In this document: piece after piece, positions 3,082-40,619 of the stretch
How the letters are laid out: each line of letters starts with the position of its first letter
How positions within the stretch are numbered: the first letter of the stretch is position 1
Source: an uncultured virus (IMG/VR IMGVR_UViG_3300028569_000032)
Lineage: Duplodnaviria; Heunggongvirae; Uroviricota; Caudoviricetes
Virus record (IMG/VR): IMGVR_UViG_3300028569_000032
Strand: one strand, 5' to 3'
DNA length: 64,000 nucleotides
Made by a program: the position numbers and the translations under genes
Notes under the pieces: generated by a model
Told to the model about the DNA's origin: nothing
Seen by the model: the letters and a program-made list of their open reading frames with translations, nothing else
Databases searched by the model: none

Positions 3082-3144
3082 GACTATATCCTCATGTTAC
3101 CGTCCATCGTCCATCCGTTAACGCAGGACGGATTTCTACATGTG

Positions 3145-14861: not shown

Positions 14862-15167
14862 TGTCGCAGTCTCCTTTGAAGTGGAGGGATCAATCGTCCC
14901 CCTTACACTTACTACTCGGTCAGACTTGCACTCTGACATAACCATTTTTTTCTATATTTTTGTATATTAAATGATATCAGAATTTTTGGGAGAAGCTTGG
15001 AGTACAATGGCCAAAGAATAATATTGTTTCAAATTTGGAGTACAATGCCCAAAGAATAACAGGTATAAAAAAAGATATCACAAGATATTTAATTATATCT
15101 TGTGATATCAAAGTTATAAAAAAGATAGAGGGAGATATCTCCCTCTATCTATATCTATCACAATTTT

Positions 15168-15335
15168 TTACAGGGAGGCCTCATACGCTGCCCACGCAGC
15201 GTCGATTTTCGATCGCACTTCCTGAGGCATTCGCAAACCATCGTATTTCCAGAGGGCCTCCTGCTCTAGCAGGAGTGCCTTGCACTCCAACCTGAGTGCC
15301 TTTTCGTCCTCTTTCGACCAATCGTACTCACTCAT
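15168..15335 (-). CDS. Small hypothetical cassette protein, 55 aa (MSEYDWSKEDEKALRLECK...)
   Basis: AGGAG SD, preceded by the element at 15384; below the ORF-track size cutoff. Confidence 0.6.
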   Translation of the reverse strand: MSEYDWSKEDEKALRLECKALLLEQEALWKYDGLRMPQEVRSKIDAAWAAYEASL

Positions 15336-15935
15336 AGCGCATCTCCTGTGAAGTAAGGTGGATCACTTGTCCCCCTTACAATTACTACTCGGTCAGACTT
15401 GCACTCTGACATAACCGTTTTTTTCTATATTTTTGTATATTTTGTGATATATCCTGATATCAGGATTTTTAGGAGAAACTTAGAGTACAATGCCCAAAGA
15501 ATAATATCGTTTCAAACTTGGAGTACAATGGCCAAAGATTCTTTTGGGCATTGTACTCTGAATTTGTGATTAAAAAAAATATGTGATACATGCTGTTATG
15601 CATGTATCACATATTTATCAAGACTTATCATCAACAGAAACAGATTCTTGATCTTGTGCGCTATTATCAACTCCTCTACAAATAGCGCACAATGCCCACA
15701 CTTGCAATGTGGGGCAAGCGTTGCCACCACAAGCCTCACAAACTCCACCGGGGATAGGCCCCCACATGTCAACATCAACATTAGACATCTTATATTTCCT
15801 TCAATACCCTTTTAAGAATCGCACCCCTTGTGCGATTCCTTTTTGTGTTCCGATGATGGTGATATCCAGCACCAGAACGATGTTGCTTGTGACCAGTGCT
15901 TATTCTGCACTGGTCAATCTTTATAGCAATTTTTA

Positions 15936-16298
15936 TCATGACTCATCATCCTGTGAGTCATTTTTATCACCCAGCCGTAATGGCCTATCGACCAGTAGCG
16001 TTGTGATATAAATCACGCCATTTAGAACAGTGACCCATCCATGGGCCACATCGTCCGCAGAAAAGATTCTACGGATTTCAAGGGAAATATCAGACCATTG
16101 CCCCCCTGATGGACGAAAGCCCATCAGGGGGGCATTTTCATGCCCTGCCACCACTTCGTCGAGAAGGGTGATCTCAGGCTCTCCCCCTGCGATTTCAAAT
16201 CGCAGGGTTGACGTCAACCACTCCTTCAGAGAGGCCACACGGCCCCACTGAGTGATGAAAGCGGAAAAACCTTCTTTGCACTCATGCACGTTCAGCAT
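15936..16298 (-). CDS. Hypothetical cassette protein
   Basis: GGAG SD, element at 16329. Confidence 0.6.
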   Translation of the reverse strand: MLNVHECKEGFSAFITQWGRVASLKEWLTSTLRFEIAGGEPEITLLDEVVAGHENAPLMGFRPSGGQWSDISLEIRRIFSADDVAHGWVTVLNGVIYITTLLVDRPLRLGDKNDSQDDES

Positions 16299-16526
16299 GT
16301 TAAACTCCAAAGTGTTATCGTTACAATGACTACTCGGTCAGACTTGCACTCTGACATAACCAATTATTTGTATATTTTGTGATATTTTTAGATAGCGTGG
16401 AATACTCTACGCTGAGTAAATCTGGAGTACAATGCCCAAAGAATCTTTTGGCCATTGTACTCTGAATTTGTGATTAAATAAAAAAAAAGTCAGGATGGGA
16501 TTTTTCCCATCCTGACTTCGGGGTTT

Positions 16527-16778
16527 TTACGCAGGCAGGTCGAATGCCTGCTGGTGCTGGACCCAGTCCAGAACCTCCTCGTCAAGGAGGGTAACCTGTG
16601 GCTTGCGCCAAGGCGACACCTCCTTGTCCACAGAGATCAGGCGCACCCGCCTAATCTCTCGACGCTCGAAGCCCACGAGGGCGAGGCCCTCATAAAGGGA
16701 CTCGACCCCGTGGTGGGCCACCTCAGCGGTGCGCCCACCAACCAACAGAACTTTTGAAACCTTCCTTTTGATCATCAT
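16527..16778 (-). CDS. Hypothetical cassette protein
   Basis: GGAG SD, element at 16830, terminator at 16480-16517. Confidence 0.65.
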   Translation of the reverse strand: MMIKRKVSKVLLVGGRTAEVAHHGVESLYEGLALVGFERREIRRVRLISVDKEVSPWRKPQVTLLDEEVLDWVQHQQAFDLPA

Positions 16779-17047
16779 GGCGCAGACTCCACTGTAGTGA
16801 GTGGATCACTCGTCCGCCTCACTACAAACACTACTCGGTCAGACTTGCACTCTGACATAACCAATTATTTGTATATTTTGTGATATTTTTAGATATAACG
16901 TGGAATACTCTACGTTGCTTGTGGAATACTCTACGCTGAGTAAATCTGGAGTACAATGCCCAAAGAATCTTTTGGGCATTGTACTCTGAATTTGTGATTA
17001 AATAAAAAAAATAGACACAGTTATCTTTTGATAACTGTGTCTATATA

Positions 17048-17251
17048 CTACTTGCCCATGTGCATCCACGCCTCTTCATCTGATATAATCATATCAGTGT
17101 TGATATTGAGATAGGCGTGCTTGTGCCTTCGAGGGTTGAAGCAATACAGAAGCTTGGTCCCTGATCGGGCCACAAAAGGCACTTCTGTGCCTCCGCAGGC
17201 TGGGACCCATCGGTCAGCCACTGCAGACAGGGCGTAATCTGCATCACTCAT
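17048..17251 (-). CDS. Hypothetical cassette protein
   Basis: AGGAG SD, element at 17300. Confidence 0.65.
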   Translation of the reverse strand: MSDADYALSAVADRWVPACGGTEVPFVARSGTKLLYCFNPRRHKHAYLNINTDMIISDEEAWMHMGK

Positions 17252-17330
17252 AGCGCAGTCTCCTGTGAAGAGGAGGGATCAATCGTCCCCCCTACAATTA
17301 CTACTCGGTCAGACTTGCACTATGACATAC

Positions 17331-17744
17331 TCATTTTTTTGTATATTTTTGTATATCTACTTCTGCTTTGACTTTTGTTTTTCCTGATCGGGTCTTCTTT
17401 GGTAAAGACCCTGTTACCTCTCTGACACGATCCATTGCCACTTTGATATCATTAACAAAGTGGCTAATGTATTCGTCACCAGACTGCTGGTGGGCGATTG
17501 CTTCTTGCATCGCCTCCTTCAGCATCTCTGCTGCACGATCCCTTACTATGCCCATCTTTTCGAGCAGGAGGGCCATCGTCAATAACAGCGGGATGTCCAC
17601 TGTTGGAGTATATGTCTCGTCCTCGTCCTTGCTAAGACTGCCTTTAATGTTGACAACAAAGGTTTCATCGAAGCTGTAATCACCAGCTTCGACCTTTGGT
17701 GATTTGAGGGATTTGAGAAGAGCGGCGATGATGACATCGTTCAT
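17331..17744 (-). CDS. Hypothetical cassette protein
   Basis: GGAG SD, element at 17776; the stop abuts the next element. Confidence 0.7.
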   Translation of the reverse strand: MNDVIIAALLKSLKSPKVEAGDYSFDETFVVNIKGSLSKDEDETYTPTVDIPLLLTMALLLEKMGIVRDRAAEMLKEAMQEAIAHQQSGDEYISHFVNDIKVAMDRVREVTGSLPKKTRSGKTKVKAEVDIQKYTKK

Positions 17745-17937
17745 AATCAGACTCCACTGGGTTATTGTTACAATGACTACTCTGTCAGATCCGCACTCTG
17801 ACATAACCAATTATTTGTATATTTTGTGATATCAGTATAAACTTAGAGTACAATGCCCAAAGAATGTGTTTACATAAAAAAATAGCTCGTAGAATACTCC
17901 ACGTGTCTTGTGGAATACTCTACGAGCTTGTGATATA

Positions 17938-18225
17938 CTATGAATCATATTCTTTAGGCCAGTTATCATCAATTTTGTTTAGATAATTTGAGTGATCTTC
18001 TGATTCGTCATCGTATATGAATCTTATTGAAAGATAGCTTCCAAAATCATGAGGATTTGAAGCAATCTTTAGTGCCGATCCTTCTGGTGGTTGACCGAAG
18101 AGGCTCACAATTTGGTCAATTGTGCGTCTTGCTTCTTTTCTGGCAGCAGTTGGGTCGTAATTTGGACCAACCTGCTGGCAAGGCTCTTCTGATGGTGTTG
18201 TGTCGAAGTCGTAATGCTCACGCAT
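17938..18225 (-). CDS. Hypothetical cassette protein
   Basis: AAGGAG SD, element at 18256. Confidence 0.7.
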   Translation of the reverse strand: MREHYDFDTTPSEEPCQQVGPNYDPTAARKEARRTIDQIVSLFGQPPEGSALKIASNPHDFGSYLSIRFIYDDESEDHSNYLNKIDDNWPKEYDS

Positions 18226-18441
18226 CTTAATTACTCCTTGTGGTTAGTTACAAATAATACTCTGTCCGATCAGCAGTCTGACATAACGATTTATTATGAT
18301 GTGTTTACATAAAAAAATAGCTCGTAGAATACTCCACATGTCTTGTGGAATACTCTACGAGCTTGTTGAATACTCTACGCTTATAAGTTATACACAAGTT
18401 CCTTTCACTTGTGCAATTGGGTTATAGTTTCAGAAAAAAAA

Positions 18442-18762
18442 TCAAGATTCCAGACATATCTTTTGGCACAATGCCTCAATAGGAGCCAAGAATTCTTCAA
18501 GGCTCGTGCTGTAATCAGTGATCACATCGTGACCACTGTTGCCATATACTAAGAAGATGGTTGATCTTTTACCATCTTTCTTGAGTATGATGGCTTCTTC
18601 ATCGACACTGAAGCATTGCTCCAGCATCGATTTGATTGTTCCTGAGAGCCTGATTCGCTCTTCGCCATTGTCGATGGCGATGGCATAGCCTTCCTTCTTG
18701 GCCTTTGCCAAAATTGCCCTGACAACCTTGCGCTCGATCTTCTGACGTTGTTGAATTGTCAT
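18442..18762 (-). CDS. Hypothetical cassette protein
   Basis: GGAG SD, element at 18795. Confidence 0.7.
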   Translation of the reverse strand: MTIQQRQKIERKVVRAILAKAKKEGYAIAIDNGEERIRLSGTIKSMLEQCFSVDEEAIILKKDGKRSTIFLVYGNSGHDVITDYSTSLEEFLAPIEALCQKICLES

Positions 18763-19189
18763 GTCAATTACTCCACTTGGTTATCGTTACAATGACTACT
18801 CGGTCAGACTTGCACTCTGACATAACCAATTATTTGTATATTTTGTGATATTTTTAGATAGCGTGGAATACTCTACGCTGAAAAAACTTGGAGTACAATG
18901 GCCAAAGATTCTTTTGGGCATTGTACTCCAGATTTTGAAATAGCCAAAAAAAAGATAGCAGAGCTTATTGCCCTGCTATCTTAATGATATCAAATTTCTA
19001 TTGTGTAGTCTCCAGTTCCGATCATGCGATCCATTTCCTTTCTCACATGATCATAATGTTTATCTGACATTCCCAGATCGTTAAGTATGGAATCTAAAGC
19101 AACTTTATGTTGCTTTAGATGGTCCAATACTTCAGTAACTGCAATGAAATCGGACCTGTTCATTACAACACTCCTGTTGGTTTAAGATA

Positions 19190-19594
19190 TCAAACCATAC
19201 CAAAAGCTCTGGCCCAGCGGTTGATACCCTGCCATTTTTGTGGAGGGATGGCATTTGTGATCTTGTCGGCCAAGGCATCAAGATCTTTGGCCTTGGCCCT
19301 CATCTCACTGAGTTCACCGGGCAGATCAAAGTCTGCACATACCGGCAGGCACTGATGTTGACCTATTGGGCTAACAACAAAGGCAACCATTCGCCATAAG
19401 TAGGCCACACGGCCTGTTTCCAATGTTGGATGGCGTAATTTGCGGCCATCTTTTATGACGATGTTGTACTCGATCTTAGGCTTTGCAGCCCTCAATCGAC
19501 CCTTGTTTTTACCCTGAGTGGCAATAATGCCACGAGCAATTTCTTGCTCTTCTTGGGTAAGGTGATCGATAGGAATTATAGGCATCTCACGCAT
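19190..19594 (-). CDS. Hypothetical cassette protein
   Basis: GGAG SD, element at 19655. Confidence 0.7.
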   Translation of the reverse strand: MREMPIIPIDHLTQEEQEIARGIIATQGKNKGRLRAAKPKIEYNIVIKDGRKLRHPTLETGRVAYLWRMVAFVVSPIGQHQCLPVCADFDLPGELSEMRAKAKDLDALADKITNAIPPQKWQGINRWARAFGMV

Positions 19595-19701
19595 CTTCAG
19601 ACTCCACTGTGGGTTTCGATCATCGTTACTCGTTACTCGTTACTCGTTACAATGACTACTCGGTCCAACTTGCAGTTGGACACAACCAATTAACCAATTA
19701 A

Positions 19702-20037
19702 TTATTTTCCACGATAACGGCTGATAAAGTTGTCGATAGAGACGTCTCTAAGGCCTTCTTCTTCCTGTTGATCAAGTTTGTCGAAGATATCTTCTTTGTC
19801 CAAAAGGGTCTTTGGATCAAATGGGAACTCTTCCGATAGAGTTTCCAGCATTTTTGGGTCAACAGGAACTTCGTTCCATGACGCATCATCGTAGGCGACT
19901 ACTTTCGCCAGAATGATGTCATGTTCAATGACACCACGATGGTAACCGTATACTTCGCCCTCATAAGTGAGGTCGAAGGAAAAGTTTGTATATTTCACGG
20001 TTACCACTGATTCTTTTTCGGTAATGTAATGAACCAT
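19702..20037 (-). CDS. Hypothetical acidic cassette protein
   Basis: GGAG SD, element at 20075. Confidence 0.65.
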   Translation of the reverse strand: MVHYITEKESVVTVKYTNFSFDLTYEGEVYGYHRGVIEHDIILAKVVAYDDASWNEVPVDPKMLETLSEEFPFDPKTLLDKEDIFDKLDQQEEEGLRDVSIDNFISRYRGK

Positions 20038-20554
20038 CTTCAGACTCCACTGGGTTTCGATCATCGTTACAATGACTACTCGGTCAGACTTGCACTCCAA
20101 CATAACCAATTATTTGTATATTTTCTGATATTTTATGATATCAGAAAATTCAGGGTAAAACTTAGAGTACAATGCCCAAAGAATATTTTGGTTATTGTAC
20201 TCTGGCTTATGTGATTATAGGCTTAAAGTACAATGCTCAAAGAGTTTTTTGGGTATTGTACTCTGGTGTTAATCACAATCCATATAACACAAGATATAAA
20301 CTTATATCTTGTGTTATAGTTTGGAAGCTTGTGGAATACTCTACGCTGAAATCCACATACACAGACATAGTATTGGTGTTTGTTCTAGTGGGAGTATTTG
20401 CCCTATGAGTTCTGGGCATAATTCTCTGTTGAGTTCACAATCTATTATTTTGAACATGAGGTGCATCTCCAGAATAATCGTCACACAAGTAATACTCGGT
20501 CAGTTTCGCAGTCCAACATAACGGGTTTTGTGTATATAGTTTTGGAGGACAAAG

Positions 20555-20920
20555 ATGTATACAGGAATTGTATTGGACGAGAACAGCAGGTCACAATTGA
20601 TAAATGAATTTCCTTTACCACCTGATTGGGAATTGATATGTCATCATATGACAATAAATATTGGTTCATCAAGCAGTGGTCCTGCACAAGAATATCTTGG
20701 CCAAAAAGTTGATCTGTGTGTCAATTCTGTTGCTGTTGATGACAAGGTTATGGCAGTTGGTGTAGAAACAGAAGTACCAAGCGTCAATAGTAAAAAGCAT
20801 ATAACAATCGCAGTAAACAGAAAAGCTGGAGGTAAACCATTCATGGCTAATAAGCTCGTTGTATGGAAACCTATTCCAAAAGAAATTCATTTATCAGGTG
20901 TTGTTGAAGAGGTATCTTAG
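20555..20920 (+). CDS. 2H phosphoesterase family protein
   Basis: Two HxT motifs (HHMTI, KHITIA); GGAGG SD. Confidence 0.75.
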   Translation: MYTGIVLDENSRSQLINEFPLPPDWELICHHMTINIGSSSSGPAQEYLGQKVDLCVNSVAVDDKVMAVGVETEVPSVNSKKHITIAVNRKAGGKPFMANKLVVWKPIPKEIHLSGVVEEVS

Positions 20921-20986
20921 TATATCAATAGATTTTGACATAAAAAAAATCCCCCTTGCCTTTGTTTGGCAAGGGGGATTGGCTGA

Positions 20987-21319
20987 TCATAGTGTTTTAT
21001 TTGATAAGTATAAAATTGCTTTTTCTAGTATTTCTTTATTATCACAAAAAAGACCAAGACCACAATTACATTTAGAACACAACAAACCTCTAAAGTTTCC
21101 ATTTTTGTGACAATGATCTATAGCAAGAGTAATATCTGAACGTCCACAAATTTCACAAATGCCATTATGTTTATCAATGTATTCTAAAACCTCAGGAACG
21201 CTAAGTTTTAATTTTCTTATTGATCTTCTAAGAATTCCCCTTTCATGTTTTTCTGGATTTTTTTGCTCCCATATTTTCTTACTTTTTTTAACTTTATCTG
21301 GATTTTTTTTTCTATATTC
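20987..21319 (-). pseudogene. 5'-truncated Endonuclease VII-family (HNH) remnant
   Basis: Translated by hand: CEICGRSDITLAIDHCHKNGNFRGLLCSKCNCGLGLF; in-frame TAA at 21320-21322 and no ATG/GTG start. Confidence 0.75.
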
Positions 21320-21450
21320 TTAGGGGCATTTCCGGGCCTGCGATTGGATGCGTGGATATGGAAGACGATTAGGAATCAACGACGATATGGGAAACGAAAA
21401 ACCCCCGCATGGGTTTGCCATGCGGGGGTTAGTTGGTGCCCTCTGGGGAA

Positions 21451-21690
21451 TCAGCTGATCAACTCGGCAAAGTAGGTTCCTTCAGGCCTTTCGATTCTTA
21501 CCGGGCCTTTCCATTTATCATCACACTGTGGCAGTTCTGACAACTCCTGAGCGAGTTCTTCGTATGCTTCGTCGCTTTCATCCTGATTTCTGCCAAGTAA
21601 CGCTTGGCAATTAATGATTTCGCAATCTTCTGTCCAAGTGCCTTCCCCAACCCAAACTCCATCGAGACTAATCACGATTTTCACTTTCAT
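21451..21690 (-). CDS. Hypothetical protein
   Basis: AAGGAG SD; terminator at 21397-21431. Confidence 0.6.
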   Translation of the reverse strand: MKVKIVISLDGVWVGEGTWTEDCEIINCQALLGRNQDESDEAYEELAQELSELPQCDDKWKGPVRIERPEGTYFAELIS

Positions 21691-21754
21691 ATCATTGCTC
21701 CTTTGCCTCTTTTATTTCACATTGTTTACATTGCGGCCCAATTTTCACAAAATA

Positions 21755-22207
21755 TTATGCTGCAAATTGTACACATTCTGGTCCAAAACCTTGATCAACA
21801 CTTTTTGGTGTGGTAAGCTTCCTCCCACATCGACCACATTTGCCCTCATGGTGGAGAGCGAATCCTTTGTCGATCAGAGGCTGGGTATTGTTTTCCCAGA
21901 CCAATTTCAAAGCACGGTTGATCAATTTGACCTGAAGGCTTTCGCCATTCAGGCAGGACTTTGCAGTAGTCCTGACCTGCCCGTTATCTGGGTTCAGGAT
22001 ACCCAGATAAGTATAGGAGTTGGTGTTGTCTGGGCCAGTGAGAAGTGACACGAAGAACGTGTCGCTGAATCCATTGGAACCTTCTTTGAACCTCACCTTG
22101 AAGGTGTAGTGAGGTCTTAGGCCATTTTCTGTTGCGTAAGGTTCTGGCAGGGCCAGAGTGAAGGTTGACTTGCCAGCGGTAACGAATTCTTTAGAAATGA
22201 TGTTCAT
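21755..22207 (-). CDS. DUF6011-like Zn-finger protein
   Basis: CGRCGRKLTTPKSVDQGFGPEC; element at 22259. Confidence 0.75.
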   Translation of the reverse strand: MNIISKEFVTAGKSTFTLALPEPYATENGLRPHYTFKVRFKEGSNGFSDTFFVSLLTGPDNTNSYTYLGILNPDNGQVRTTAKSCLNGESLQVKLINRALKLVWENNTQPLIDKGFALHHEGKCGRCGRKLTTPKSVDQGFGPECVQFAA

Positions 22208-22351
22208 TCTCAGACTCCATCGCAACTTGTGAGAGGATCAATCGTCCTCCCTACAATCACTACTCGGTCAGACTTGCACTCTGACATAACCAATTATTTG
22301 TATATTTTGTGATATTTTTAGATATTTTATGATATAGACATAAAAAAAGCC

Positions 22352-22497
22352 TCGTAGAATACTCCACATGGCTTGTGGAATACTCTACGAGGCTTGTGGA
22401 ATACTCTACGAGGCTTGTTGAATACTCTACGAGGCTTGTTGAATACTCTACGAGGCTTGTTGAATACTCTACGAGGCTTGTTGAATACTCTACGAGG
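22352..22497. repeat. 21-bp tandem array of the GTGGAATACTCTAC family (7 units)
   Basis: Units of gt(g/t)gaatactctacgaggctt; dispersed copies near 16397, 16900, 16921, 17888-17925, 18324-18380, 18863, 20331, 23728-23785, 27416, 40528. Confidence 0.9.
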
Positions 22498-22789
22498 TTG
22501 CGAGCATATCAAGAATCCATTTTCTGTTTTTCTCACCAATATGCTGAAGGATTTTCAGAACATGCTCACGCTGTAGGGTTATTACGCCTTCCAGCTTATG
22601 ATTATTGGTTTTACTGACCATCACACCACCATCAGAGGAATGTGTGTTAAATGGTACTATGTCAGGATTGCGAGAGATGAAGTATTCCATTTCTTTCTCC
22701 TTGTGTTTTAGAAGCCACCCCATGACTGCGTTAAGATAGACCAAACTTGTTCTGTTACCTTCAATGATTCACAGATAAAGAAAAACATA

Positions 22790-23185
22790 TCATTTACTCC
22801 TGTTGTAAACCCAATCGGGCAATGTGTTATAGTTCCAATACTCATAAGCCACTGACTCAGCTTCTTCTTCGTTTAGTGACTTACCCCTTGCTTCCTGCAT
22901 AGCGTGTCCTAGTTCATGTAGAACTGTTGTCAGGTACACACATCTCATGCTAAGATTATATTTCTTAGCAGATTTCTTACAGGTATCGACACATATCAGG
23001 ACTATTGGCTTTCTAAAACTTTGGAGAACATATTTCCCAAGATGTTCAATATGTTTGATTTGATACAAGTAAAAGTCTTGGAAGTCAGGAATTTTATGTA
23101 AGATATCATTCCTGACTTCCTTTTCCACTTGTATCAAATCATTTTCTATTGATTCATCAAGAATATATCTTGATGGAAGAGTCAT
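22790..23185 (-). CDS. HExxH metallopeptidase-like protein
   Basis: TVLHELGHAMQE...EEEAE. Confidence 0.65.
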   Translation of the reverse strand: MTLPSRYILDESIENDLIQVEKEVRNDILHKIPDFQDFYLYQIKHIEHLGKYVLQSFRKPIVLICVDTCKKSAKKYNLSMRCVYLTTVLHELGHAMQEARGKSLNEEEAESVAYEYWNYNTLPDWVYNRSK

Positions 23186-23786
23186 TTAATTCTCCTCGAT
23201 AAGATCAACTCCAAGACAACCACCGTCACTAGTAGTATACCCGATTCGATATACTTTACTTCCAATTGTGGTTCGGAAATTGATTCGGAAATTCAATGGT
23301 GCTGGTTCACCATCAATCGGATCTGGTAGATTATCAGGGATATATTCCCTGATGACATTGATGAATTGATCTCGATCTTGTTCATCGAGATCAATTAGGT
23401 TGTAGGCTTCGTCGCCTTGTAAGAAAAACACTGGATAGTGTTTCATGACTTCCTCCTTGGTGATGTGATGTCCATTTTCGTACCTGTCTCGATATGAACT
23501 GGTTTGCCCCACATGTCTATTCGGGCCTTAAGTTGCATTACTTTGTCCCTTGCTGTTTCATCAGCAGCAAGAGTGAAGACCTCATTGTTCGCAAATACGA
23601 ACGTGATGTTCACTGAAACACGAGCATTGAGTTCACTCATATTCAATCCTCCTTCAATGACTACTCGGTCATAATTGCAGTCGGACATAATGATTTATTC
23701 TGATATATTTACATAAAAAAATAGCTCGTAGAATACTCCACATGTCTTGTGGAATACTCTACGAGCTTGTTGAATACTCTACGAGC

Positions 23787-26521: not shown

Positions 26522-26528
26522 ATAAACA

Positions 26529-29136: not shown

Positions 29137-29354
29137 ATAAAACTCCTAATCGTAAGGATGTGGAGGATTGGGCGGTCCCTTATAATTGGGATTAGCAATC
29201 CATGTGTCAAATTGTGTCAAAAGCCAAGGACTCTCATCCCCTCTATCAATTGCACCAACTATTGATTGATGCACAGCATGTTGATATGGGCTGTCGTAAT
29301 TAAACGACTCGTGTTCTTCCCTGCTATCACAATAATCTTCCATGTCATACCTCC

Positions 29355-29774: not shown

Positions 29775-30430
29775 TGTTCACAAACACCAATTGATATTTC
29801 GGAGAAATCATTTTATCCGATTGTTTTGTCAGTATTTTTTTCAACAACACCAATAATTTTTTTAACCTCACCTTGGTATTCACTTGTCAATGCTGTAATT
29901 TCGCCGATCCAACATCTTTCTGAAAAAAAAGGTGCAGGCAAATAAACTTTATCGCCAATTTCAACTTTGAAATTGCACTCATAAGTATATTTGTTGTCTA
30001 CTACAACTAGCATTTTTTTCCCCTGCCGTACATCTAATGACTCCTTGAGGTTAAAATCATTCAACAATTGATTGCTGGTCGATAATTCTATGAATCTCTT
30101 GAGAATCATAGGAACAGATCCTAGATATCAAACTTTGCAGTTCTACCAAAGAATATATCTTTGGTTCTTCTTCTTCAGTTGATAATTCATTCCATGTGTG
30201 TACTCGAAATTGATAACAATTACCATCATTGGTAATTCTTTCTATCTTCTCGATAGAACAATTCTGACTGTCACCAACATCAGCATTGGGGTTGTTTTCA
30301 ATGTTCTGCTTAAGAATATCCAGTTTGCTTTGCAGCAAGGCAATGGACAACTTATGAGCGAAGTTAGACATTTTTTAGATACTCCTTTATGAAATTGAAA
30401 CAATAGGTTGCTCTTGTGGCCATTTGTCAT

Positions 30431-30801
30431 TACTCTTTTTGGTAAATAATCGCATAAAAAAAGGGTGGCATAGAGTTAACTATGCCACCCTTGAAATATT
30501 AATTCACATCAGGATTGTCTACTTCAACCAATCCAGAAACTTCATAGTTTTACTGATAATAAATCAGCCGTAACCAAATTTGTCCCTAGACTTTCCGTGT
30601 CATATTCTGAATCGGGACCATTCATAACCACCTCATACGCCTTTTCTTTTGCCTCTTGTAGGCTAGAGGCTTCTAGAATTACTGTGTGTTCAAGAGTCTC
30701 TTGAATTATTACTTCATACTTGGCCATTGTCACACACTCCTTTGGGTAAAAAATCGCATGAAAAAGGGTGGCATAGAGTTAACTATGCCACCCTTGAAAT
30801 A
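30431..30801. repeat. Duplicated terminator-plus-SD linker, about 65 bp (about 30432-30498 and 30736-30801)
   Basis: aatcgcat.aaaaagggtggcatagagttaactatgccacccttgaaata occurs twice. Confidence 0.85.
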
Positions 30802-30985
30802 ACAGGCACTAGCAGGATACGGTCAACCGTCTAACCAGTTAACGGTCTTTCACCTGCCGCTTATCCGCCAAACCCAGTCACCTTACGAGTACTTCACTGC
30901 AAGTCGTCTGGAAACGGCTTGGGCAACCCCTGAGAGAGATGCAAGAGCATTGCATCCCCCTCAGACTTGAGAGTTTGGTTTCGCC
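30800..30985 (-). ncRNA. Candidate structured RNA downstream of the Ubl gene
   Basis: GC-richer ORF-free stretch with several hairpins (ctgagggggatgcaa..ttgcatctctctcag; caagccgt..acgacttg; gcagg..accgt..acggt..cctgc), followed by a terminator. Confidence 0.4.
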
Positions 30986-30988
30986 AAA

Positions 30989-31270
30989 TTAGCCCTTTAC
31001 GCCAGCCTGCTTGATGAACTCAAGAGACTCGTTGGCGTTGAGGATGTGATCCTCACCAACCTGAATACCGTTGACAAATGCAACAGCATCAGAAGGGATG
31101 TTGTGGGTCTGGGCGAATGTGCTGCGAGCAGCACTCACCGTATGACCACCCAATGGATAACTGCCATCAGCAGTTCCGTGAATAACCTTCACCAAATTAG
31201 AAGCCAAAGCACTCAAAGCACCCTGAGCTTCAACACTGTTTGCGAAACCAGTCGAAAGAACATCGCTCAT
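30989..31270 (-). CDS. Ubiquitin-like (ThiS/MoaD beta-grasp) protein
   Basis: GHTVSAAR...NIPSDAVAFVNG...ILNANESLEFIKQAGVKG ending in Gly; AAGGAG SD; element at 31314. Confidence 0.8.
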   Translation of the reverse strand: MSDVLSTGFANSVEAQGALSALASNLVKVIHGTADGSYPLGGHTVSAARSTFAQTHNIPSDAVAFVNGIQVGEDHILNANESLEFIKQAGVKG

Positions 31271-31385
31271 AGTAAACTCCTTACCCTTGTTAGAATCAAC
31301 CACCCCTACAAACACTACTCGGTCAGACTTGCACTCCAACATAACCAATTTTCGATATATTTTCTGATATTTTAAGATATCAGCT

Positions 31386-32108
31386 TTATCGAACCCACCT
31401 TTGCATTGGAACGGCCTTCATTGTAGGCATGTCCATCACCACTTCACCATACAAATGTGGATTTGCAAGGATCTTTCCTGAGTATATCTCAGGATCGGTC
31501 ACATTGTAAAATGCAGAAAGCATTGTTGCTGCAATTAAATTGTTCACAATCACAATCTGAGGAACTTCCTCTGCCATTCTACTACAAGATCCCGGCTGAT
31601 TCATCTCACTAGGATGAAGATCAGTAGGATTTGCAATCTCAGAGTGATATTGAGTGATAGGTGCAGTAATGTTCTTGCCATCACGACGAATGTGCAAAAA
31701 CACATTACCATCCAACCTATCATTACCACCACTGATCAAAGTGATATTATCCAACTCACATACACGCTCAGAAACTAACTTCCTAGACTTGTGATTATCC
31801 ACACACAACATGACAATGTCATTCTCACGAATGTAACGGACAACATTGTCCTCATCCAAATATACTGGATGATCATAAATTTGAATCCTGCCAAACTTAC
31901 CCTTCAGGTTGTTGGCAGTAACAGTTGCCTTCGCTCCAATCTGATCAAAATCCTGCCTCACTGCATTCTTATCTTCAAATGTATCTCCATCAATAAGATG
32001 AAGCTCGACATCATTAAACTTGTCCCAAGAGTAATTTAGGAAACGACCCAAAACTGGAAGGACACACAAGCCAATGCCGCCAGTACCAATAACCTTTACC
32101 TTATGCAT
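31386..32108 (-). CDS. ThiF/E1-like adenylyltransferase
   Basis: VIGTGGIG, LIDGDTFEDKNAVRQ, MLCVDNHKSR, GSC...PQ..IVN motifs. Confidence 0.9.
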   Translation of the reverse strand: MHKVKVIGTGGIGLCVLPVLGRFLNYSWDKFNDVELHLIDGDTFEDKNAVRQDFDQIGAKATVTANNLKGKFGRIQIYDHPVYLDEDNVVRYIRENDIVMLCVDNHKSRKLVSERVCELDNITLISGGNDRLDGNVFLHIRRDGKNITAPITQYHSEIANPTDLHPSEMNQPGSCSRMAEEVPQIVIVNNLIAATMLSAFYNVTDPEIYSGKILANPHLYGEVVMDMPTMKAVPMQRWVR

Positions 32109-32225
32109 CTTATACTCCATTAGGTTATCTTCGCATACACTACTCGGTCAGACTTGCAGTCCAACATAACCAATTTCGGGTGGAGGAAATTGATTTATTC
32201 CTCCACCCGAAATTATCAACTGATA

Positions 32226-33191
32226 TCAATCGCCATCCCATTCTTGGATTCCCCAAGAATTATCCTCACCATAACGCCAACTCCTACCATAAAGCCATCC
32301 CTGACCCTTAGTGATATCTTCCCAATTCTCATTGGTATCACTAGATGTTTTAGATGTGCTTGATGGAACCCAAGAGTCAGCACGAGTAATACGAGGCTCA
32401 ACCTTATCAATCCAATCTTTCAATAACTTCTCACGGAAGAATTCTAATTCACTCAAATCATCCTCATTCAATTCCAGACGGAAATAATATTCCATTCTGG
32501 TGAAAGACTTCTTGACAGGAATTCCACGAACCTTGGAATCGTACTCTTCGACAACTTCCTCTTCCGAATCACTAACAATACCAAAAGCAACATCAGAAGG
32601 TTCCAATTTACTTCTGTTATTGCTGAAGACAATACTGCTGGCAATGCTGAATCTATCAGAATTGACATGACCAAATGTCAGATGAACTCCATCAAATGTA
32701 GCTTCATCTGCCTCGTCAGTGCCAGAATGGAATGCACTAAAATCACAATGAGAGTGAATAGTGCCAACCATCTGCCAACCATCACCATCATTCCCAATGT
32801 AATCACGATCCTCGACAGGAACAGTATCTGTCCTATCATAATTGACAGAACCATAACTGACAGTCTGCTTCGGACACCAGAGACGATATGACTCAAGCTT
32901 CTTGGAGTAAAGAAGAGTCAAATAGGACTCTGAACGATACCTATCGAAAACAGCATTGAAGAATGTTTTGGCCTGAGCCGTAACCAATGCTGAAATCTTA
33001 GGTAATGTGAAATTACCATTGGTATTGGCTGATGCAAGGAAAGGAATCTCCTTGACCCTAACCAGTGCAGAACCATGAAGACGCTCAACTCTCATATAAA
33101 TACCATCCTTGGCAACCAGATAGTAAGTTCCGGTTGAAGGAGGAACAAAACCTTCAGATGCGAGATAAACAGGGAAAAGAGGCAATGCCAT
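32226..33191 (-). CDS. JAB/MPN metalloprotease (deubiquitinase-like)
   Basis: E...VGTIHSHCDFSAFHSGTDEADE JAMM motif. Confidence 0.9.
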   Translation of the reverse strand: MALPLFPVYLASEGFVPPSTGTYYLVAKDGIYMRVERLHGSALVRVKEIPFLASANTNGNFTLPKISALVTAQAKTFFNAVFDRYRSESYLTLLYSKKLESYRLWCPKQTVSYGSVNYDRTDTVPVEDRDYIGNDGDGWQMVGTIHSHCDFSAFHSGTDEADEATFDGVHLTFGHVNSDRFSIASSIVFSNNRSKLEPSDVAFGIVSDSEEEVVEEYDSKVRGIPVKKSFTRMEYYFRLELNEDDLSELEFFREKLLKDWIDKVEPRITRADSWVPSSTSKTSSDTNENWEDITKGQGWLYGRSWRYGEDNSWGIQEWDGD

Positions 33192-33218
33192 AGTAAACTC
33201 CTTTAGTGTGGTTGAAAA

Positions 33219-34661
33219 TCAAACTGCTTTGCGAGGCCTACCCCTACCCCTCTTGATTGGTTGTCCATCAGGACCAACAACAAGAGTGCTTGACGAAACA
33301 CGATTCAAACTGATAGCAATACTATCAGGAAGTTTATCTTTCTTAGGACGACCACGCTTCTTTGTCACAACGATATCACCATTCTCGTCAATATGCTGAC
33401 TCAACTTAGCCTTAAGAACAGAAACCTCATCCAACTTCTGCAAAAGATACTGGTTAACTGCATAAAGCTCACATTGAACCTTCAACTTCTCTGCTGCAAT
33501 CCTTTCTCTCTCAAGTTCAATGTTGCGAAGAATAGAACTACTGCTGTTAATAATCGTCTCTATCTCTGCCTTCTTGCGATCAAGATTGGCATTATCAAGA
33601 CGAACCTTTTTCTCATGTTCGTGATGCAATTCACTCCACATATTACTATATGCAGTGCTTGCAATGTTACGAACAGTAGACTGCAATGCAACCATATGAG
33701 GTTGATTGCGATTCTCTTCCATGATATCAACACTATTCAAATGAGTAGTCAAAATTCTTACGAAGTCTACAACTCCTTCGTTGATAGTAGACTTCATGTT
33801 GTTGACGAAAGCAACCTTGCTGTTCCTGCTAGCCAAATCAGATGGTAAAAGATTACCAACAAGATGACGAGGTGAAGTCTGCAAGATAGTTTGAGGCTTG
33901 ATAGCAAACATTGAATCTTCTGAAGTCAACTTCTGCCATGCCTCAAAACCACGAACATAATTCTCATAATGCCTATCAGTTTCCTTACTAGCAAAATCAT
34001 AGAAGAAAACATCATTCAGAAAACTCTGAAGATTCTGGTTCAAATCTACATTGAACTCACTAGACCAATACGAACTGATAATCGTATTGACCTTCTCAGT
34101 AATGTTGCGCCCACCATTATTCGGCAGATTCATGTTCCCAACACATACTGAAGTGCTAGAAACATTAGGCAATGGAACAAGACAGTACTGATCCTGCAAA
34201 CTCGTTATTGGACGCTTCGTTGCAGTAATATGCAAACTACTGAAGTTATCACCAGCAGCATTGCAGTTAAATGTCACATAGAACTGAATGAAAGGCAAAC
34301 TAATGTTGTAATTAGCCTGCATGAAAGAAATACGCCTGACAGTTGGCTTCTGCTCAACAATGATAGTCAAATAAGTGCTATCACGATGAACGAACCTCGT
34401 ACCCTCTGGGACAACCATCAACTGGTTGCTGTTGTTGTCAATCCAACTGTTAACCATGGTTCCAAGTGAACCACTGATGTTGGAAACAAAACTGCTTACA
34501 ATCGGCTCAGACTTCTCTTGAACAGACACATCAAGATTTGACTTGATACGCCTCAATACTGTAGCTGTCCCTTCCCGCATTAGATTCAACGTAGCTGGAG
34601 TTGAATCCCAATCCTTCACACCATTGACGAAACCGTCAATAATCTCTTTGGGAGAACTCAT
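33219..34661 (-). CDS. Prokaryotic E2-like protein with coiled coil and C-terminal AT-hooks
   Basis: SLPFIQF...PLPNVSSTSVCVGN E2-like Cys motif; KKRGRPKK and KRGRGRPRK; position in the E1/JAB/Ubl operon. Confidence 0.7.
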   Translation of the reverse strand: MSSPKEIIDGFVNGVKDWDSTPATLNLMREGTATVLRRIKSNLDVSVQEKSEPIVSSFVSNISGSLGTMVNSWIDNNSNQLMVVPEGTRFVHRDSTYLTIIVEQKPTVRRISFMQANYNISLPFIQFYVTFNCNAAGDNFSSLHITATKRPITSLQDQYCLVPLPNVSSTSVCVGNMNLPNNGGRNITEKVNTIISSYWSSEFNVDLNQNLQSFLNDVFFYDFASKETDRHYENYVRGFEAWQKLTSEDSMFAIKPQTILQTSPRHLVGNLLPSDLASRNSKVAFVNNMKSTINEGVVDFVRILTTHLNSVDIMEENRNQPHMVALQSTVRNIASTAYSNMWSELHHEHEKKVRLDNANLDRKKAEIETIINSSSSILRNIELERERIAAEKLKVQCELYAVNQYLLQKLDEVSVLKAKLSQHIDENGDIVVTKKRGRPKKDKLPDSIAISLNRVSSSTLVVGPDGQPIKRGRGRPRKAV

Positions 34662-34997
34662 AATCAAACTCCTTTGGGTTTATGTCTACTACTCGGTCGG
34701 ACTTGCACTCCAACATAATCAATTAAGAACATAATGATGAGCCTTGTTGCTCTCTGCGAACTTCTTAGCCTCAATGGCATCTTTGAACCTTGGACTATTT
34801 ACTTCAAGCTGATTTATGCCTCTGTAGTCACGAATGGAAAGGAAATAGTTATATCCTTCTTCGAGACTCTGAGGGAAACTACAAGGATAAAACCTATAGT
34901 TCCTTATGAAAAAAGGCTTGAGAGTATCATCCTTCTTTGGCCAAACCTTCTTCTTTCTTTCGACTTCTGCTTCTTTCCAATTGTTCATGATATCTCC

Positions 34998-35993
34998 TTA
35001 TGCAATCTTCTGATAAAAATCATCGAACCAATTCGATATTTCAGAATTATAATCCAAAATATCTTTCTGAATCATAGCTTTATGACTTTCAATCCAATAA
35101 TGATCGAGATTAAGAACAGGGTTGACAAATCGAATCCTATCTAAAACTGCTACATTCAACGAATCAAGAGGCATAATCCTTCCACCTAATGAGAAATAAA
35201 GACATTTGTCCTCAAAACCACAATCATGATGCAATTGGATTTCAGACAAAGCTCGAAAAACCCTCTTCTGCTCATATGTCATATGAACAAAATTTTCTTT
35301 ATATCTCTTGATATGAAGAAACACATCGTTCTGTAACCTTTTGATGAAATTTATAGCAGTAGAAGAGAAACTACCATCGGAACGATAGATGTTATTCTCA
35401 TTTACCTTTTGGAACAAAGCAAAGAGGATATCGAAAACAGTTTCCTGACTATTCCTGCAATTGGAAATAACCTGACGTAAGAAGTAAAGAGCATTGTCAG
35501 ACTTATCATTTACAGTGACATCAAAGTAATTACGGTTCCTTCTCTTCCTCAAATTGCAAAGATGAAAAGGCAAACCATAAGCTTTCAAGAGACTGTTTAA
35601 CCTGCCAATTGTAGGTTCGGTATCGGAATACTTATCAACTGCATCCAAATCCAAATCAATTTCTTTATATTCAGAATCAATTATTACTCGATCTATGTAA
35701 GCACGAACCAAACCATCTAAAGTATCAGCAGAGAGAGTTGCATTATCAACCCAATATACATTGCTCTGGACACCATTAGAATCAATAACTCGCTTTCCAC
35801 GCAACAAAGCTTCTCTCTCAGGTTGTGCAACAAACTCAGAGAGATAGTACCTGTTGTTATCTCCTACCCAAACATATTTAATTCTTTCAGTCTTGTAGGG
35901 AGTATTAGTTCCCGGAGTATAGAAATGATGTTCCATATATGCATTTCTAAAGAAATCTTTCAAAACATCAAACGAAGAAGAAGAAACTTCCAT
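34998..35993 (-). CDS. Hypothetical protein
   Basis: 331-aa ORF with AAGGAG SD. Confidence 0.7.
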   Translation of the reverse strand: MEVSSSSFDVLKDFFRNAYMEHHFYTPGTNTPYKTERIKYVWVGDNNRYYLSEFVAQPEREALLRGKRVIDSNGVQSNVYWVDNATLSADTLDGLVRAYIDRVIIDSEYKEIDLDLDAVDKYSDTEPTIGRLNSLLKAYGLPFHLCNLRKRRNRNYFDVTVNDKSDNALYFLRQVISNCRNSQETVFDILFALFQKVNENNIYRSDGSFSSTAINFIKRLQNDVFLHIKRYKENFVHMTYEQKRVFRALSEIQLHHDCGFEDKCLYFSLGGRIMPLDSLNVAVLDRIRFVNPVLNLDHYWIESHKAMIQKDILDYNSEISNWFDDFYQKIA

Positions 35994-36062
35994 ACTGATA
36001 TCTCCTTAAGTTAAATGATAAGAAAATGGGGCATTCATGAAGAATGCCCCAAGAAAGTTAAC

Positions 36063-36371
36063 TTACGCTGCCTTTTCAATCTCAAGGATAGCCTTGTTGT
36101 AGCAATCGCTAACAACAGCAGAAATACGCTTGATCTCTTCCTCAAGCTTCTGGCCAGCAGCTAACCATGCTTCCTTTTCACTCAAATAAATCTCATCAGT
36201 ACATTGAATGATGTTTTCACTAACCTTGCCCATCCAAACAAACTTGCAAAGATGATACTCTGGTGCAACAACCTCGTATTCCCAGATCCGCACCATATTA
36301 TCACCATTGCTAATATTATTCGTGGAAACCGAAAAGCAACGCTGGCCAACAGTCAAATCAGTAATCTTCAT
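36063..36371 (-). CDS. Hypothetical cassette protein
   Basis: GGAG SD, element at 36409. Confidence 0.65.
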   Translation of the reverse strand: MKITDLTVGQRCFSVSTNNISNGDNMVRIWEYEVVAPEYHLCKFVWMGKVSENIIQCTDEIYLSEKEAWLAAGQKLEEEIKRISAVVSDCYNKAILEIEKAA

Positions 36372-36545
36372 CTTCAGACTCCACTGGGTTTCGATCATCG
36401 TTACAAACACTACTCGGTCAGACTTGCACTCCAACATAACCAATTTTCGATATATTTTCAGATATTTTCAGATATTTTATGATATCAGGAAAGAAAGGCG
36501 AAAAAAAAGACAGGCGTGATATCTTTTGACATCACGCCTGTATTG

Positions 36546-37766
36546 TCATGTTAGATCTTTAAGATCACTGAGAAATTGCTTTCTAAGGTCAGTGACCACT
36601 TCGGTATAGACCCTTTCCCTTTGATCAGAAGGAACCTTGAGAATCAGATACCTCAATGTTTCATAGATTGAAATATTAGGAGAACACTTATCAGATTCAT
36701 CATCCATCTCCATAACTTTCAGCATACCAACATCAGTAAGCTTATAACCTCTGCTGGTTACAGTGATCAATGATGGCTGATCGCTCGTCTCAGCCATCAA
36801 AACAGGCACAATGAACCTTTCAAGCTCCTCCTCCTTCCTTCCTACAAGGGAACATAAGGTTTTCTTGGCAACTGGACCAGACTTCAAGCAATTCAATACT
36901 TTAACTTCTAACTCATGAAAACCATATTCATTTATGCCTTCATCATTTGCGACACTCCTAGCTACATCCTCCCAACTCTTGTCCACATGCATCTGTTTGT
37001 ACATCTGCATGTAACGAGCAAACTCCAATGCCTTTCTAGGAACCCTTGGATTATAACTTGCTACAATGATGCAAACTTCATCAGATAAATCAGGATTTGC
37101 TTTCTTGACTATCTTTGCGATATCAGACTTGGGCAGATACTGCAAATGGACAGCAGAGAACCTAGTCCGAAATGCATCGAATAGTTTACCTTCATCGGTG
37201 GTTGCGATAATCCAAGTTGCAGAAAATGTATTCAAGACCCTACCATTCTCTGTCATCATCAACGAATCATTAAACTCAGTAGCCTTGAGCAAACCCTGAA
37301 TTATACCATCAGGAATTGCATGAACTTCATCAATGAATATAACAGTCGGAGGTAGACAGTAGTTCCTAGAAACATCCTCGACCAGACCTATACCATGATT
37401 AGTCAAAACTGAATTCACAAGATCAAAAACATCATTGACATTTTTCACTCCCTTGGGAGATATCTCGACGAATGGTAGCTTGACCACATCTGCATAAATC
37501 CTTGCCAGTGTAGTCTTACCAGCAGAAGCAGGCCCAAATATGGCAAAAGACAAGTCCCTCATCATGTGAGTAGGATCGCCCAGTGCCTTATATGCTGCAA
37601 CCTGCAACTTCCTTACAGCTTTGTCGTTGCCAACAAATCGACTGAAAGGGCTGTTTGGATTATCACGACTAACCTTCAACAACTTCTCTTCATCGGTGGG
37701 AGGAAGACGCTTTAATGCATCCTCCTCACCAAAAAATACATAATGAGGTTGCATCAAATACTCCAT
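36546..37766 (-). CDS. ruvB: RuvB-like AAA+ ATPase
   Basis: FVGN, GPASAGKTTLA, FIDEVH, ATT..GKL..AFRTRF, PRKAL, C-terminal SRG. Confidence 0.75.
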   Translation of the reverse strand: MEYLMQPHYVFFGEEDALKRLPPTDEEKLLKVSRDNPNSPFSRFVGNDKAVRKLQVAAYKALGDPTHMMRDLSFAIFGPASAGKTTLARIYADVVKLPFVEISPKGVKNVNDVFDLVNSVLTNHGIGLVEDVSRNYCLPPTVIFIDEVHAIPDGIIQGLLKATEFNDSLMMTENGRVLNTFSATWIIATTDEGKLFDAFRTRFSAVHLQYLPKSDIAKIVKKANPDLSDEVCIIVASYNPRVPRKALEFARYMQMYKQMHVDKSWEDVARSVANDEGINEYGFHELEVKVLNCLKSGPVAKKTLCSLVGRKEEELERFIVPVLMAETSDQPSLITVTSRGYKLTDVGMLKVMEMDDESDKCSPNISIYETLRYLILKVPSDQRERVYTEVVTDLRKQFLSDLKDLT

Positions 37767-38301
37767 ATGTCAATCGTTGCGCTTACTCACAGGAAGTGAA
37801 ATCCTATGGTAATATATCTTTTCCTTCGGGTCTTTCTGATACTTGTTTCGTTCCCATTCTTCCGTGTATGACACGGGAGTTTCTGGTGTATCAGTGTTTA
37901 TCATTATGTGCAAATGTCCATCCTTAATTCGGATGTCGATAGATTCTCCTGTTGGAGAAACTACCACACACATGGTTGGAACTGTACAAGCAATCTCAAA
38001 CATAATCGTTCTCCTTATGCTATATGGTTTAATCAACCGTTAAGTTCGTAAGCAGCTTCCTGCTTACGAGTCTCTGCATCATTGAGGTCACTCAGAATGT
38101 CTTCTGCATATTTCTTGCAGAAGAACTGCCCATGGCAGTACTCGTAACCATCAACACCTAAGACAACCCCCATTACATCGTAACCTTGACTGGTTTCCTG
38201 AATGTAAAACTCACGACGAACCAATTTCTTGGCCATATCATACACTCCTTTGGGAAATAAACGCATGAAACCCTCTGAATATTACTTCAGAGGGATGAAA
38301 A

Positions 38302-38571
38302 TTACGCTGCTTCAACAACTACTAATGTCTTTGCTTCCTCAACAACCACTTCTTTAACCACTTTGCGAGGACGACCACGTTTCAAACGTAATGGAGGACG
38401 ACCTCCCTTTCCACTCCTCACCAGATTGCGAAGAGTAGGGACACTTGCAATGATACCAGATTCATTCAGAACTTGTTCAGCCCCATTCAAGCCAAACTCA
38501 GATACTACACGCTTGACCAGAGCGATCTGGTCTTTGGTGAACTGCTTCTTAGGACGACCTGCCTTAGCCAT
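38302..38571 (-). CDS. Small AT-hook-type DNA-binding protein
   Basis: KAGRPKK, GGRPP and KRGRPRK motifs; element at 38602. Confidence 0.65.
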   Translation of the reverse strand: MAKAGRPKKQFTKDQIALVKRVVSEFGLNGAEQVLNESGIIASVPTLRNLVRSGKGGRPPLRLKRGRPRKVVKEVVVEEAKTLVVVEAA

Positions 38572-39099
38572 GTCAAACTCCTTTGGGTTATCGTTACAAT
38601 GACTACTCGGTCCAATCCGCACTCCAACATAACCAATTATTTGTATATTTTTGTATATTTTCTGATATCAACCTTCTACAACTTCATCTCTGCACTTTTT
38701 AGGAAGACTTGCTATGAATGGGTATAAGACATTGTCAATAAATGTCGTGCTTTCACCTGTCAATTCTTCAATCTTACTCTTAAGGTCAGAAATAAGCCTC
38801 ACTACAGCAATGTCAATCGACTGCTTCTTAGTAAAATCGTCACTGTACCTTATCATTTGAAAAACCCTCAAGCCATTTGTTCTCCACAATCACTACTCGG
38901 TCCAATCCGCACTCCAACATAACCAATTATTTGTATATTTTCTGATATTTCTTGTTATAAAATCATTTTTATGGTTTTATAACAAGAAAACGTAGAGTAC
39001 AATGCCCAAAAACCTCTTTTTATTCAAAACTCAGAGTACAATGCCCAAGAAAACCTTTGAGCATTGTACTCCAAACTCCAAAATAAAGTACAATGCCCA

Positions 39100-40610: not shown

Positions 40611-40619
40611 GGTTTTGTG

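Follow-up and report, generated by a model that had tools for sequence, protein, structure and literature searches.

The window analysed here, a whole 64,000-nucleotide stretch of DNA from an uncultured virus (Caudoviricetes; IMG/VR record IMGVR_UViG_3300028569_000032), is part of the genome of a huge uncultured T4-like phage. It contains 23 copies of a 33-base intergenic element, most of them heading about twenty small accessory genes in an array of cassettes. As judged from its sequence, the element is probably a promoter for RNA polymerase with a sigma factor of the extracytoplasmic function (ECF) type, set in cassettes that resemble the PeSL cassettes of T4-type phages. A preliminary description of the window had proposed that cassettes of this kind carry a dedicated promoter outside the sigma70 class, and this part of its interpretation is supported. 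Three close relatives have many of the same genes behind a different element of their own in the same position, and this points to a gene switch private to the phage that was rewritten wholesale during divergence.

Anatomy of the element

The element type of the window is called W. Positions within it are counted from the C of the CGA motif, and a copy extends from the T at -22 to +14. Copies were called by mismatch search and weight matrix, and were also recovered as a repeat family. Their scores range from 39.7 to 60.1 bits, whereas the next best site of the window has 2.2 bits and the highest score among 20 shuffles is 6.9. The weight-matrix scan returned the 23 copies of the preliminary description, 21 within 14,904-38,921 and two within 61,322-61,464; every copy is on the minus strand and points into downstream genes (Table 1). 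The latter two form a tandem pair ahead of a SNF2 helicase gene (59092-61260). On the coding strand the consensus reads TATGTY.GA.TGC......GACCGAGTAGT..TTGTA, and the spacer TGC is invariant (23/23).

The cassette unit consists of terminator, phased AT tract, element, leader and ribosome site, in this order. Several parts had already been described and are found again. A ribosome site and a start codon lie 27-68 bases past the C of CGA in the 21 array copies. AAATAT units precede 16 of the 23 copies, with a spacing of exactly 10 bases in 14 of 15 intervals, and the upstream AT fraction is 0.75-0.85 in 19 copies versus 0.63 overall. Hairpin terminators, which had been called frequent, were detected by scan within 200 bases upstream of 11 of the 23 copies; three more upstream hairpins were recognized by eye. 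The distance from the element to a TGT is fixed and that to the start codon is variable. As this TGT occupies +11 to +13 in 17 of the 23 copies and is common to relatives, the earlier statement that conservation ends at CCGAGTAGT does not hold.

The dyad that had been taken for the core is real; it is loose, however, and not the defining feature, because relatives without the W dyad keep the -35/-10-like register. Its centre lies 10 bases before CGA and it comprises six pairs, of which four are matched in 19-23 of the 23 copies; the whole dyad is perfect in eight. The joint change of both arms at 19,655 is present, but as a single case: at the variable pairs, covariation of the arms among the 13 distinct cores does not exceed that of shuffled arms (p 0.49 and 0.23).

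Element types in related phages

The relatives are IMG/VR fragments of 34-137 kb with an estimated completeness of 8-31%, and their loci were retrieved via the sigma gene described below and the DUF6011 gene. Exact-pattern scans with the W element gave zero matches in the viral contig and genome contig collections, and a search of viral contigs with the SNF2 gene gave zero relatives. With regard to the host, alignment of the RuvB-like ATPase against genome contigs also gave zero relatives.

Four element types were distinguished. Type W is kept in records L015, L016 and L022 (about 90% identical to the window) and in L014 (99.85% identical). Type A, in G001 and L017 (14 and 15 copies), has the consensus TATAACTTCG.TC.........CGAT; type B, in G003 and G004 (27 and 30 copies), reads AAACTGCTTCGG-7-AGAAGCAAAGCCGATA; and type C, in L021 (4 copies in 4.3 kb), reads AAACTGAATCGG.A.C.TGTC........CGAGTA. 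Twelve of the 14 records checked have one type on one strand, two (G002 and L003) are without any, and none has two. The cassettes of G002 have TTGAC-to-TAGAAT boxes instead.

Orthologous genes are headed by the element type of their own phage in 10 W-B, 7 W-A and 2 W-C pairs, with one weak match per set, and the DUF6011 orthologue is so headed in all four phage types. The proteins behind the elements are mostly 55-93% identical between types; the identity of the element cores is 0.75-0.88 within types versus 0.34-0.47 between them. The four consensus sequences align without gaps, with T at -22, CGA at 0 to +2 and TGT at +11 (+10 in C). T(-22), C, G and A are 98-100% conserved, A at -28 and T at -26 are mostly common to the four types, and the best free shift is the CGA register in five of the six type pairs. 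None of the other three types retains the W dyad. Type B has a dyad of its own, GCTTC/GAAGC, and a 4-base pair, TCGG/CCGA, occurs in B and C in inverted orientation.

Proposed promoter assignment and start site

All four types have two boxes with a 16-base spacer and zero gaps. In this common layout the spacer separates a first hexamer from a second, CG-initiated one, and a purine follows about 7 bases later. In the proposed mechanism TATGTY would be the -35 box and CGAGTA the -10 box of the window element, and transcription would start within TGTA about 7 bases on, followed by a leader, often a hairpin, and the GGAG ribosome site. The upstream terminator would insulate each cassette and the phased A tract would aid binding of the polymerase. 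ECF promoters have AAC at -35, a -10 box of CGAC, CGTA or CGTC, and spacers of 14-17 bases (PMC5758882). Type A, which reads TATAAC-16-CGAT, fits this pattern by its AAC at -35, its CG-initiated -10 box and its 16-base spacer.

The W consensus lacks sigma70 boxes, in agreement with the preliminary description. No coding-strand sigma70 site coincides with an element in a listing that excludes 11 weaker sites, except a weak one that starts downstream of copy 34,695. Ordinary sigma70-like promoters had been noted at 3,145-3,245, and the pair was found there (TTTACA-17-TATTAT, minus; TTTACA-17-TATATT, plus). One of them calibrates the start site: a common leader begins 8 bases past the -10 box of the promoter at 3,145-3,173 and 10 bases past CGAGTA of copy 61,336, so that the start would fall no more than about 2 bases from TGTA. 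In several copies of types W and A the leader hairpin starts at +10 to +12, and 5' cassettes of W and A have common leader hairpins from TGTA onwards, whereas all upstream sequence differs.

Other promoter readings were tried and rejected. An antisense sigma70-like match (CTGACA-16-TATTTT, plus strand) overlaps several copies, is weak and is lost in the TTGG variants. For type B a sigma28-like reading was rejected by spacing; its -10 box fits the sigma28 consensus, its -35 box does not. A Mot-box reading was also rejected by spacing, as TGCTT lies 24 bases from TATTAT. Sigma54 promoters have GG and GC ten bases apart; the corresponding W pair is twelve bases apart, its GG is not invariant, and the pair is absent in relatives.

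Candidate reader

An ECF-like sigma factor encoded 1.3 kb from the array is a candidate reader of the element. It matches TIGR02937 at E 1.1e-7 (below cut-off) and the PHROG sigma family at E 1e-7, and has atlas features at 0.96-0.97 with sigma families. Its fold was predicted with a mean local confidence (pLDDT) of 65.8 (51 for an earlier fold); the top matches of this model are mostly sigma-factor structures, none at E <= 0.001, and a sequence comparison with solved structures gave nothing significant.

The N-terminus of the sigma resembles those of many unrelated neighbours, which are late and putatively head-packaged proteins. These proteins, encoded at 5265-14176 and scattered elsewhere, begin with M-x-F-x-E/Q-W/F and stand behind TAAATA boxes. 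Across four records (G003 being excluded as a near-duplicate of G004) TAAATA lies within 40 bases upstream of 38 of 63 tagged frames versus 28 of 331 other frames. The sigma gene of the window lacks the box itself and is preceded by a tagged gene that has it; the N-terminal motif is kept in distant members of the sigma family, which is also encoded on contigs of 238-305 kb. The tagged proteins are likely to be head-packaged cargo, to judge from these features, and the tagged N-terminus presumably resembles the capsid targeting sequence of T4. In T4 the first 10 residues are enough for targeting, positions 4 and 7 are important, and the cleavage site lies after L/I-x-E (PMC9026906). The repertoire of the tagged cluster differs between relatives and includes a kinase-like protein (11596-12174). 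In the more distant phage G002 a cassette repeat of its own, with TAGGATACTAAAATGTGG units, stands before sigma70-type boxes and adjoins the same tagged-gene cluster (L009:7641-14100).

The sigma proteins of W and A phages are 85% identical. Sigma and element do not covary, so the nearby sigma remains a candidate reader only; as all records are fragments, a different factor may be encoded elsewhere. Most likely the phage itself encodes the reader, which would differ between lineages. That it is a phage factor encoded outside the window has close to an even chance; the tagged sigma of the window is a tentative assignment, rather less than likely, and a host ECF sigma is doubtful. Transcription would be early, as the preliminary description had it, if the reader is injected or host-derived, and middle if it is made after infection. 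It is proposed that, when the reader changes between lineages, all 20-30 copies change with it. A combined scheme, in which a private promoter code is read by a virion-carried sigma and switched wholesale (20-30 copies, with gene conversion among cassettes), so that gene-exchanging sisters use orthogonal dialects, is unlikely as a whole. The literature search found no paper on a packaged sigma.

Several observations weigh against an ECF-type promoter or against the tagged sigma as its reader. AAC at -35 is confined to type A and is missing from W, B and C. TGTC of W lies 20 bases before CG, a shorter distance than in ECF41/42 promoters. The spacer is unusually conserved, and a plain ECF promoter needs no such conservation. 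The register test is modest, since the seven columns identical in all four types were equalled by 9 of 300 shuffles and the CGA anchor of the alignment was picked by eye. Recognition regions 2 and 4 of the sigma are nearly the same in W, A and G002; the sigma of G002 is closest to that of W in region 4, yet this phage is without the W element in 34 kb and has the sigma70-type cassettes. No sigma was found in the 137 kb of the B-type record G004, which is 31% complete. Finally, no ECF group in the accessible part of the ECF supplement (PMC7826278) matched the W element.

The conserved spacer and the unchanging sigma bear on another explanation, an activator-dependent promoter (MotA/AsiA-like or CII-like). 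Here a dimeric transcription factor of the phage would bind the dyad and recruit the polymerase of the host, the sigma would read only the CGA box and the start region, and factor and site would change together between phages. The largely matched dyad pairs, the separate dyad of type B and the inverted pair of B and C agree with this, the invariant spacer bases fit protein contact, and PmSL cassettes with Mot boxes exist in phage nt-1 (PMC4122927). It is nonetheless decidedly unlikely: few dyads are perfect and their arms show no significant covariation, the dyad centres differ by type (-10, -6.5 and -13), and the four consensus sequences have no common TAnnnT -10 box for host sigma70.

It is improbable that the element serves an RNA polymerase of the phage, or another dedicated enzyme, whose gene lies outside the window, although conservation over the whole 33 bases resembles the single-block promoters of phage polymerases and the genomes were seen in part only (19%, 8%, 8% and 31% complete). 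No polymerase match occurs among the 92 proteins of the window and the 105 of G004 and G001 that were scanned (the latter being part of their frames). Sigma70-type and T4-late-type boxes show use of the host polymerase, and jumbo phages with gp23-type heads have been described that lack a polymerase and encode sigmas (PMC7824862).

Gene content and proposed cassette shuffling

The comparison of gene content suggested in the preliminary description was carried out and revealed variable content: 28 of 45 array genes were recovered in G004 (17 being absent) and 21 of 32 in A-type records. The backbone is mostly collinear, with about five genes moved in B and two in A. Recombination between copies would keep them alike within a genome and let genes be gained, lost and moved. 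Four indels distinguish the window from its ~90% identical relatives, and they show the proposed shuffling at the element only in part. One lies right after an element, where L022 has an extra gene of 97 amino acids directly behind the equivalent of copy 26,119, and one is a whole-cassette swap (18.0-18.4 kb); the other two (21.0-21.8 kb and 29.8-30.0 kb) are away from elements.

One copy per cassette, a common orientation, imperfect arms around a 7-base centre and the extra gene of L022 could also point to a site for site-specific recombination (integron- or tyrosine-recombinase-like) that defines mobile cassettes, with promoter activity secondary. Arrays of this kind have a recombinase gene and a conserved symmetric site at each cassette end. 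In the window no recombinase was found, apart from a sub-threshold SAM-like match (E 0.0026). The symmetry is lost in type A, copies also occur within stable operons (E2/JAB, ThiF) and ahead of the SNF2 gene, most of the backbone is collinear, and half of the indels are away from elements. This explanation is therefore very improbable.

Some further observations concern the array genes. A W-type element with an internal deletion (middle 20 bases reduced to 2; L001:3120-3175 and L016:3700-3770) heads the same gene in W-type and A-type records, so the lineages exchange or share cassettes. An apparent remnant of an endonuclease-type gene at 21020-21250 (minus strand), an impression from sequence, lies behind a terminator and is missing in L015 and L016. 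Near the array head a full-length RuvB-like ATPase (36546-37766, minus), conserved in G003 and G004, could bear on cassette recombination; the 89-residue basic protein encoded there has only low atlas scores (0.81 or less). An E2-like protein, a JAB protein, a ThiF/E1 protein and a small Gly-ending protein (30989-34661, minus) make up a PRTRC-like set for ubiquitin-type conjugation. The set lies within the array, headed by three element copies, and all four genes are kept in G004. A family search with the small protein (30989-31270) gave zero matches. The array also encodes a SAM-lyase-family protein (27490-28149, minus; Pfam E 1e-7). S-adenosylmethionine (SAM) synthetase (3284-4411) and SAM decarboxylase (1230-1781, plus) are encoded by the same phage.

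Array head, other repeats and general features of the window

A non-coding stretch of 1.8 kb marks the start of the array, which reads away from it. The stretch has CACAA/TTGTG-rich repeats and a sharp switch in GC skew, whose cumulative minimum lies at 39,818. In G004 the skew flips at the same place relative to the array, near 130-131 kb. The stretch is a probable origin or genome end. In both phages the skew switch marks the array start, and several repeat families cluster there; the copies might thus be non-transcriptional protein-binding sites, with a role in DNA entry, packaging, replication or nucleoid organisation, and stand between genes incidentally. Strict gene polarity, bipartite structure with fixed spacing and the leader common to a sigma70-type promoter speak against such sites, which have very little probability.

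Two box families accompany the elements. Boxes ending in TTGTACT lie 70-120 bases upstream of 8 of the 23 copies and are probably sites for an additional regulator; in relatives they have the same core and a type-specific inner part. A quasi-palindromic 14-bp box has one site beyond its main range, at 40529, and seven in tandem at 22354-22493. It often forms a terminator stem, varies in copy number, and is kept in the A, B and C types despite replacement of the promoter element.

The window encodes MetK, SAM decarboxylase, a glycosyltransferase, a RuvB-like ATPase, a SNF2 helicase and a tRNA-Lys. The latter is the only match of an Rfam scan of the window, in which the element matched no known structured RNA family. 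A protein family scan identified a gp23-type head protein, a head protease, a terminase and baseplate genes in the syntenic relative G004. A frame of 464 amino acids (45060-46454, minus) has no family match; its middle starts with C-V-P-L and ends with G-N before S, features of an intein-like insertion. Gene 6729-7937 contains 12-base His/Ala/Gly coding repeats at 6812-7027, and three 63-base coding repeats lie at the start of the window (1-220).

Table 1. Positions of the element copies and of associated features in the window (aa, amino acids; a point marks features without a strand)
Feature	Position	Strand	Remarks
ECF-like sigma	12652..13341	-	229 aa; candidate reader; 1.3 kb from array
Element copy	14904..14940	-	heads 75-aa gene 14634-14861; final array cassette
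Element copy	15377..15413	-	leader hairpin from TGTA; heads 55-aa gene
Element copy	16322..16358	-	heads 120-aa gene
Element copy	16823..16859	-	leader hairpin from TGTA; heads 83-aa gene
Element copy	17293..17329	-	heads 67-aa gene
Element copy	17769..17805	-	AGA replaces CGA; heads 137-aa gene
Element copy	18249..18285	-	most divergent; AGA replaces CGA; heads 95-aa gene
Element copy	18788..18824	-	heads 106-aa gene
Element copy	19648..19684	-	both dyad arms altered; heads 134-aa gene
Element copy	20068..20104	-	heads 111-aa gene
Element copy (20,498)	20484..20520	-	only a 38-aa frame downstream; opposite-strand gene upstream
Element copy	22252..22288	-	heads DUF6011 gene 21755-22207
Element copy	23653..23689	-	heads 65-aa gene
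Element copy	25625..25661	-	heads 179-aa gene
Element copy (26,119)	26105..26141	-	extra 97-aa gene directly behind equivalent in L022
Element copy	31307..31343	-	heads 93-aa gene 30989-31270, putative ubiquitin-like (position, C-terminal Gly)
Element copy	32132..32168	-	heads ThiF/E1-like gene
Element copy (34,695)	34681..34717	-	heads E2-like and JAB genes
Element copy	36402..36438	-	heads 102-aa gene
Element copy	38595..38631	-	heads gene for 89-aa basic protein with GRP motifs, then RuvB-like ATPase
Element copy	38885..38921	-	first of array; adjoins non-coding skew-switch region
Element copy (61,336)	61322..61358	-	before SNF2 helicase; leader hairpin common to sigma70-type promoter 3145-3173
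Element copy	61428..61464	-	tandem upstream partner before SNF2 helicase
Divergent sigma70-like promoter pair	3111..3245	.	with leader hairpin common to copy 61,336; start-site calibration
Boxes ending TTGTACT	14564..39102	.	20 matches; half-sites or ~38-bp palindromes
Quasi-palindromic 14-bp box	16397..27429	.	21 sites; 20-21-base period
Non-coding skew-switch stretch	38925..40724	.	GC skew

Comparison with known systems

The literature search covered sources outside subscription journals and bioRxiv supplements, and among the matches listed no paper dealt with such elements or with wholesale promoter replacement in phages. The accessible part of PMC12619734, on another lineage, contains nothing on these elements, and that of PMC7162821 mentions only sigma70 and AsiA. 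The four sister phages represent four natural, many-copy promoter sets in the same register. Provided that they are read by a sigma or an activator of the phage, these sets are a series for following the co-change of a factor with dozens of its sites, and could supply orthogonal promoter-sigma pairs. Should the tagged sigma prove to be the reader, a sigma would be delivered in the virion to start infection.

With the cellular ECF promoters (sigW and sigX of B. subtilis, PMC5758882; ECF37/41/42, PMC7826278) the element has in common two boxes, a 16-base spacer and a CG-initiated -10 box. It differs from them in its -10 sequence (CGAG or CGAT) and in the 20-30 near-identical copies on one phage strand; the -35 boxes TATGTY (W) and TCGGAA and TCGGGA (B and C) match no ECF group among those compared. 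Phage phiEco32 provides a precedent in gp36 (PMC12276001), a small and divergent sigma with which the phage diverts the host polymerase to private promoters. However, gp36 serves middle and late genes, recognizes one short consensus and needs gp79, whereas the targets in the window phage are accessory cassettes with two boxes. The tagged proteins recall the internal proteins and Alt of T4 (PMC9026906), as unrelated proteins, including the sigma, carry an N-terminal motif with aromatics at positions 4 and 7 and a head protease is present in G004. The sigma differs from the T4 targeting sequence in that F-x-E stands at residues 13-15 instead of L/I-x-E at 8-10, and its packaging is putative.

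The closest likeness is to the PeSL and PmSL of the T4-type phages RB49/phi1, T4/PST and KVP40/nt-1 (PMC2839356, PMC4122927). These too comprise a repeated intergenic stem-loop, an AT-rich tract, a promoter, a ribosome site and a start codon, and lie in variable regions of small genes of unknown function, with gains, losses and moves between relatives and with degraded copies. Like PeSL, the window element occurs in a T4-like phage, in a hyperplastic region whose small genes vary. Whereas PeSL have sigma70-like promoters with only slight differences between phage pairs, the boxes of the window phage are not sigma70-like, are fully replaced between sisters and are accompanied by extra upstream box families. 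Because the sigma70-like boxes of PeSL are lacking, the element is regarded as a variant of PeSL and not as a member, one that would extend the PeSL idea to promoters that the housekeeping sigma of the host should not read.

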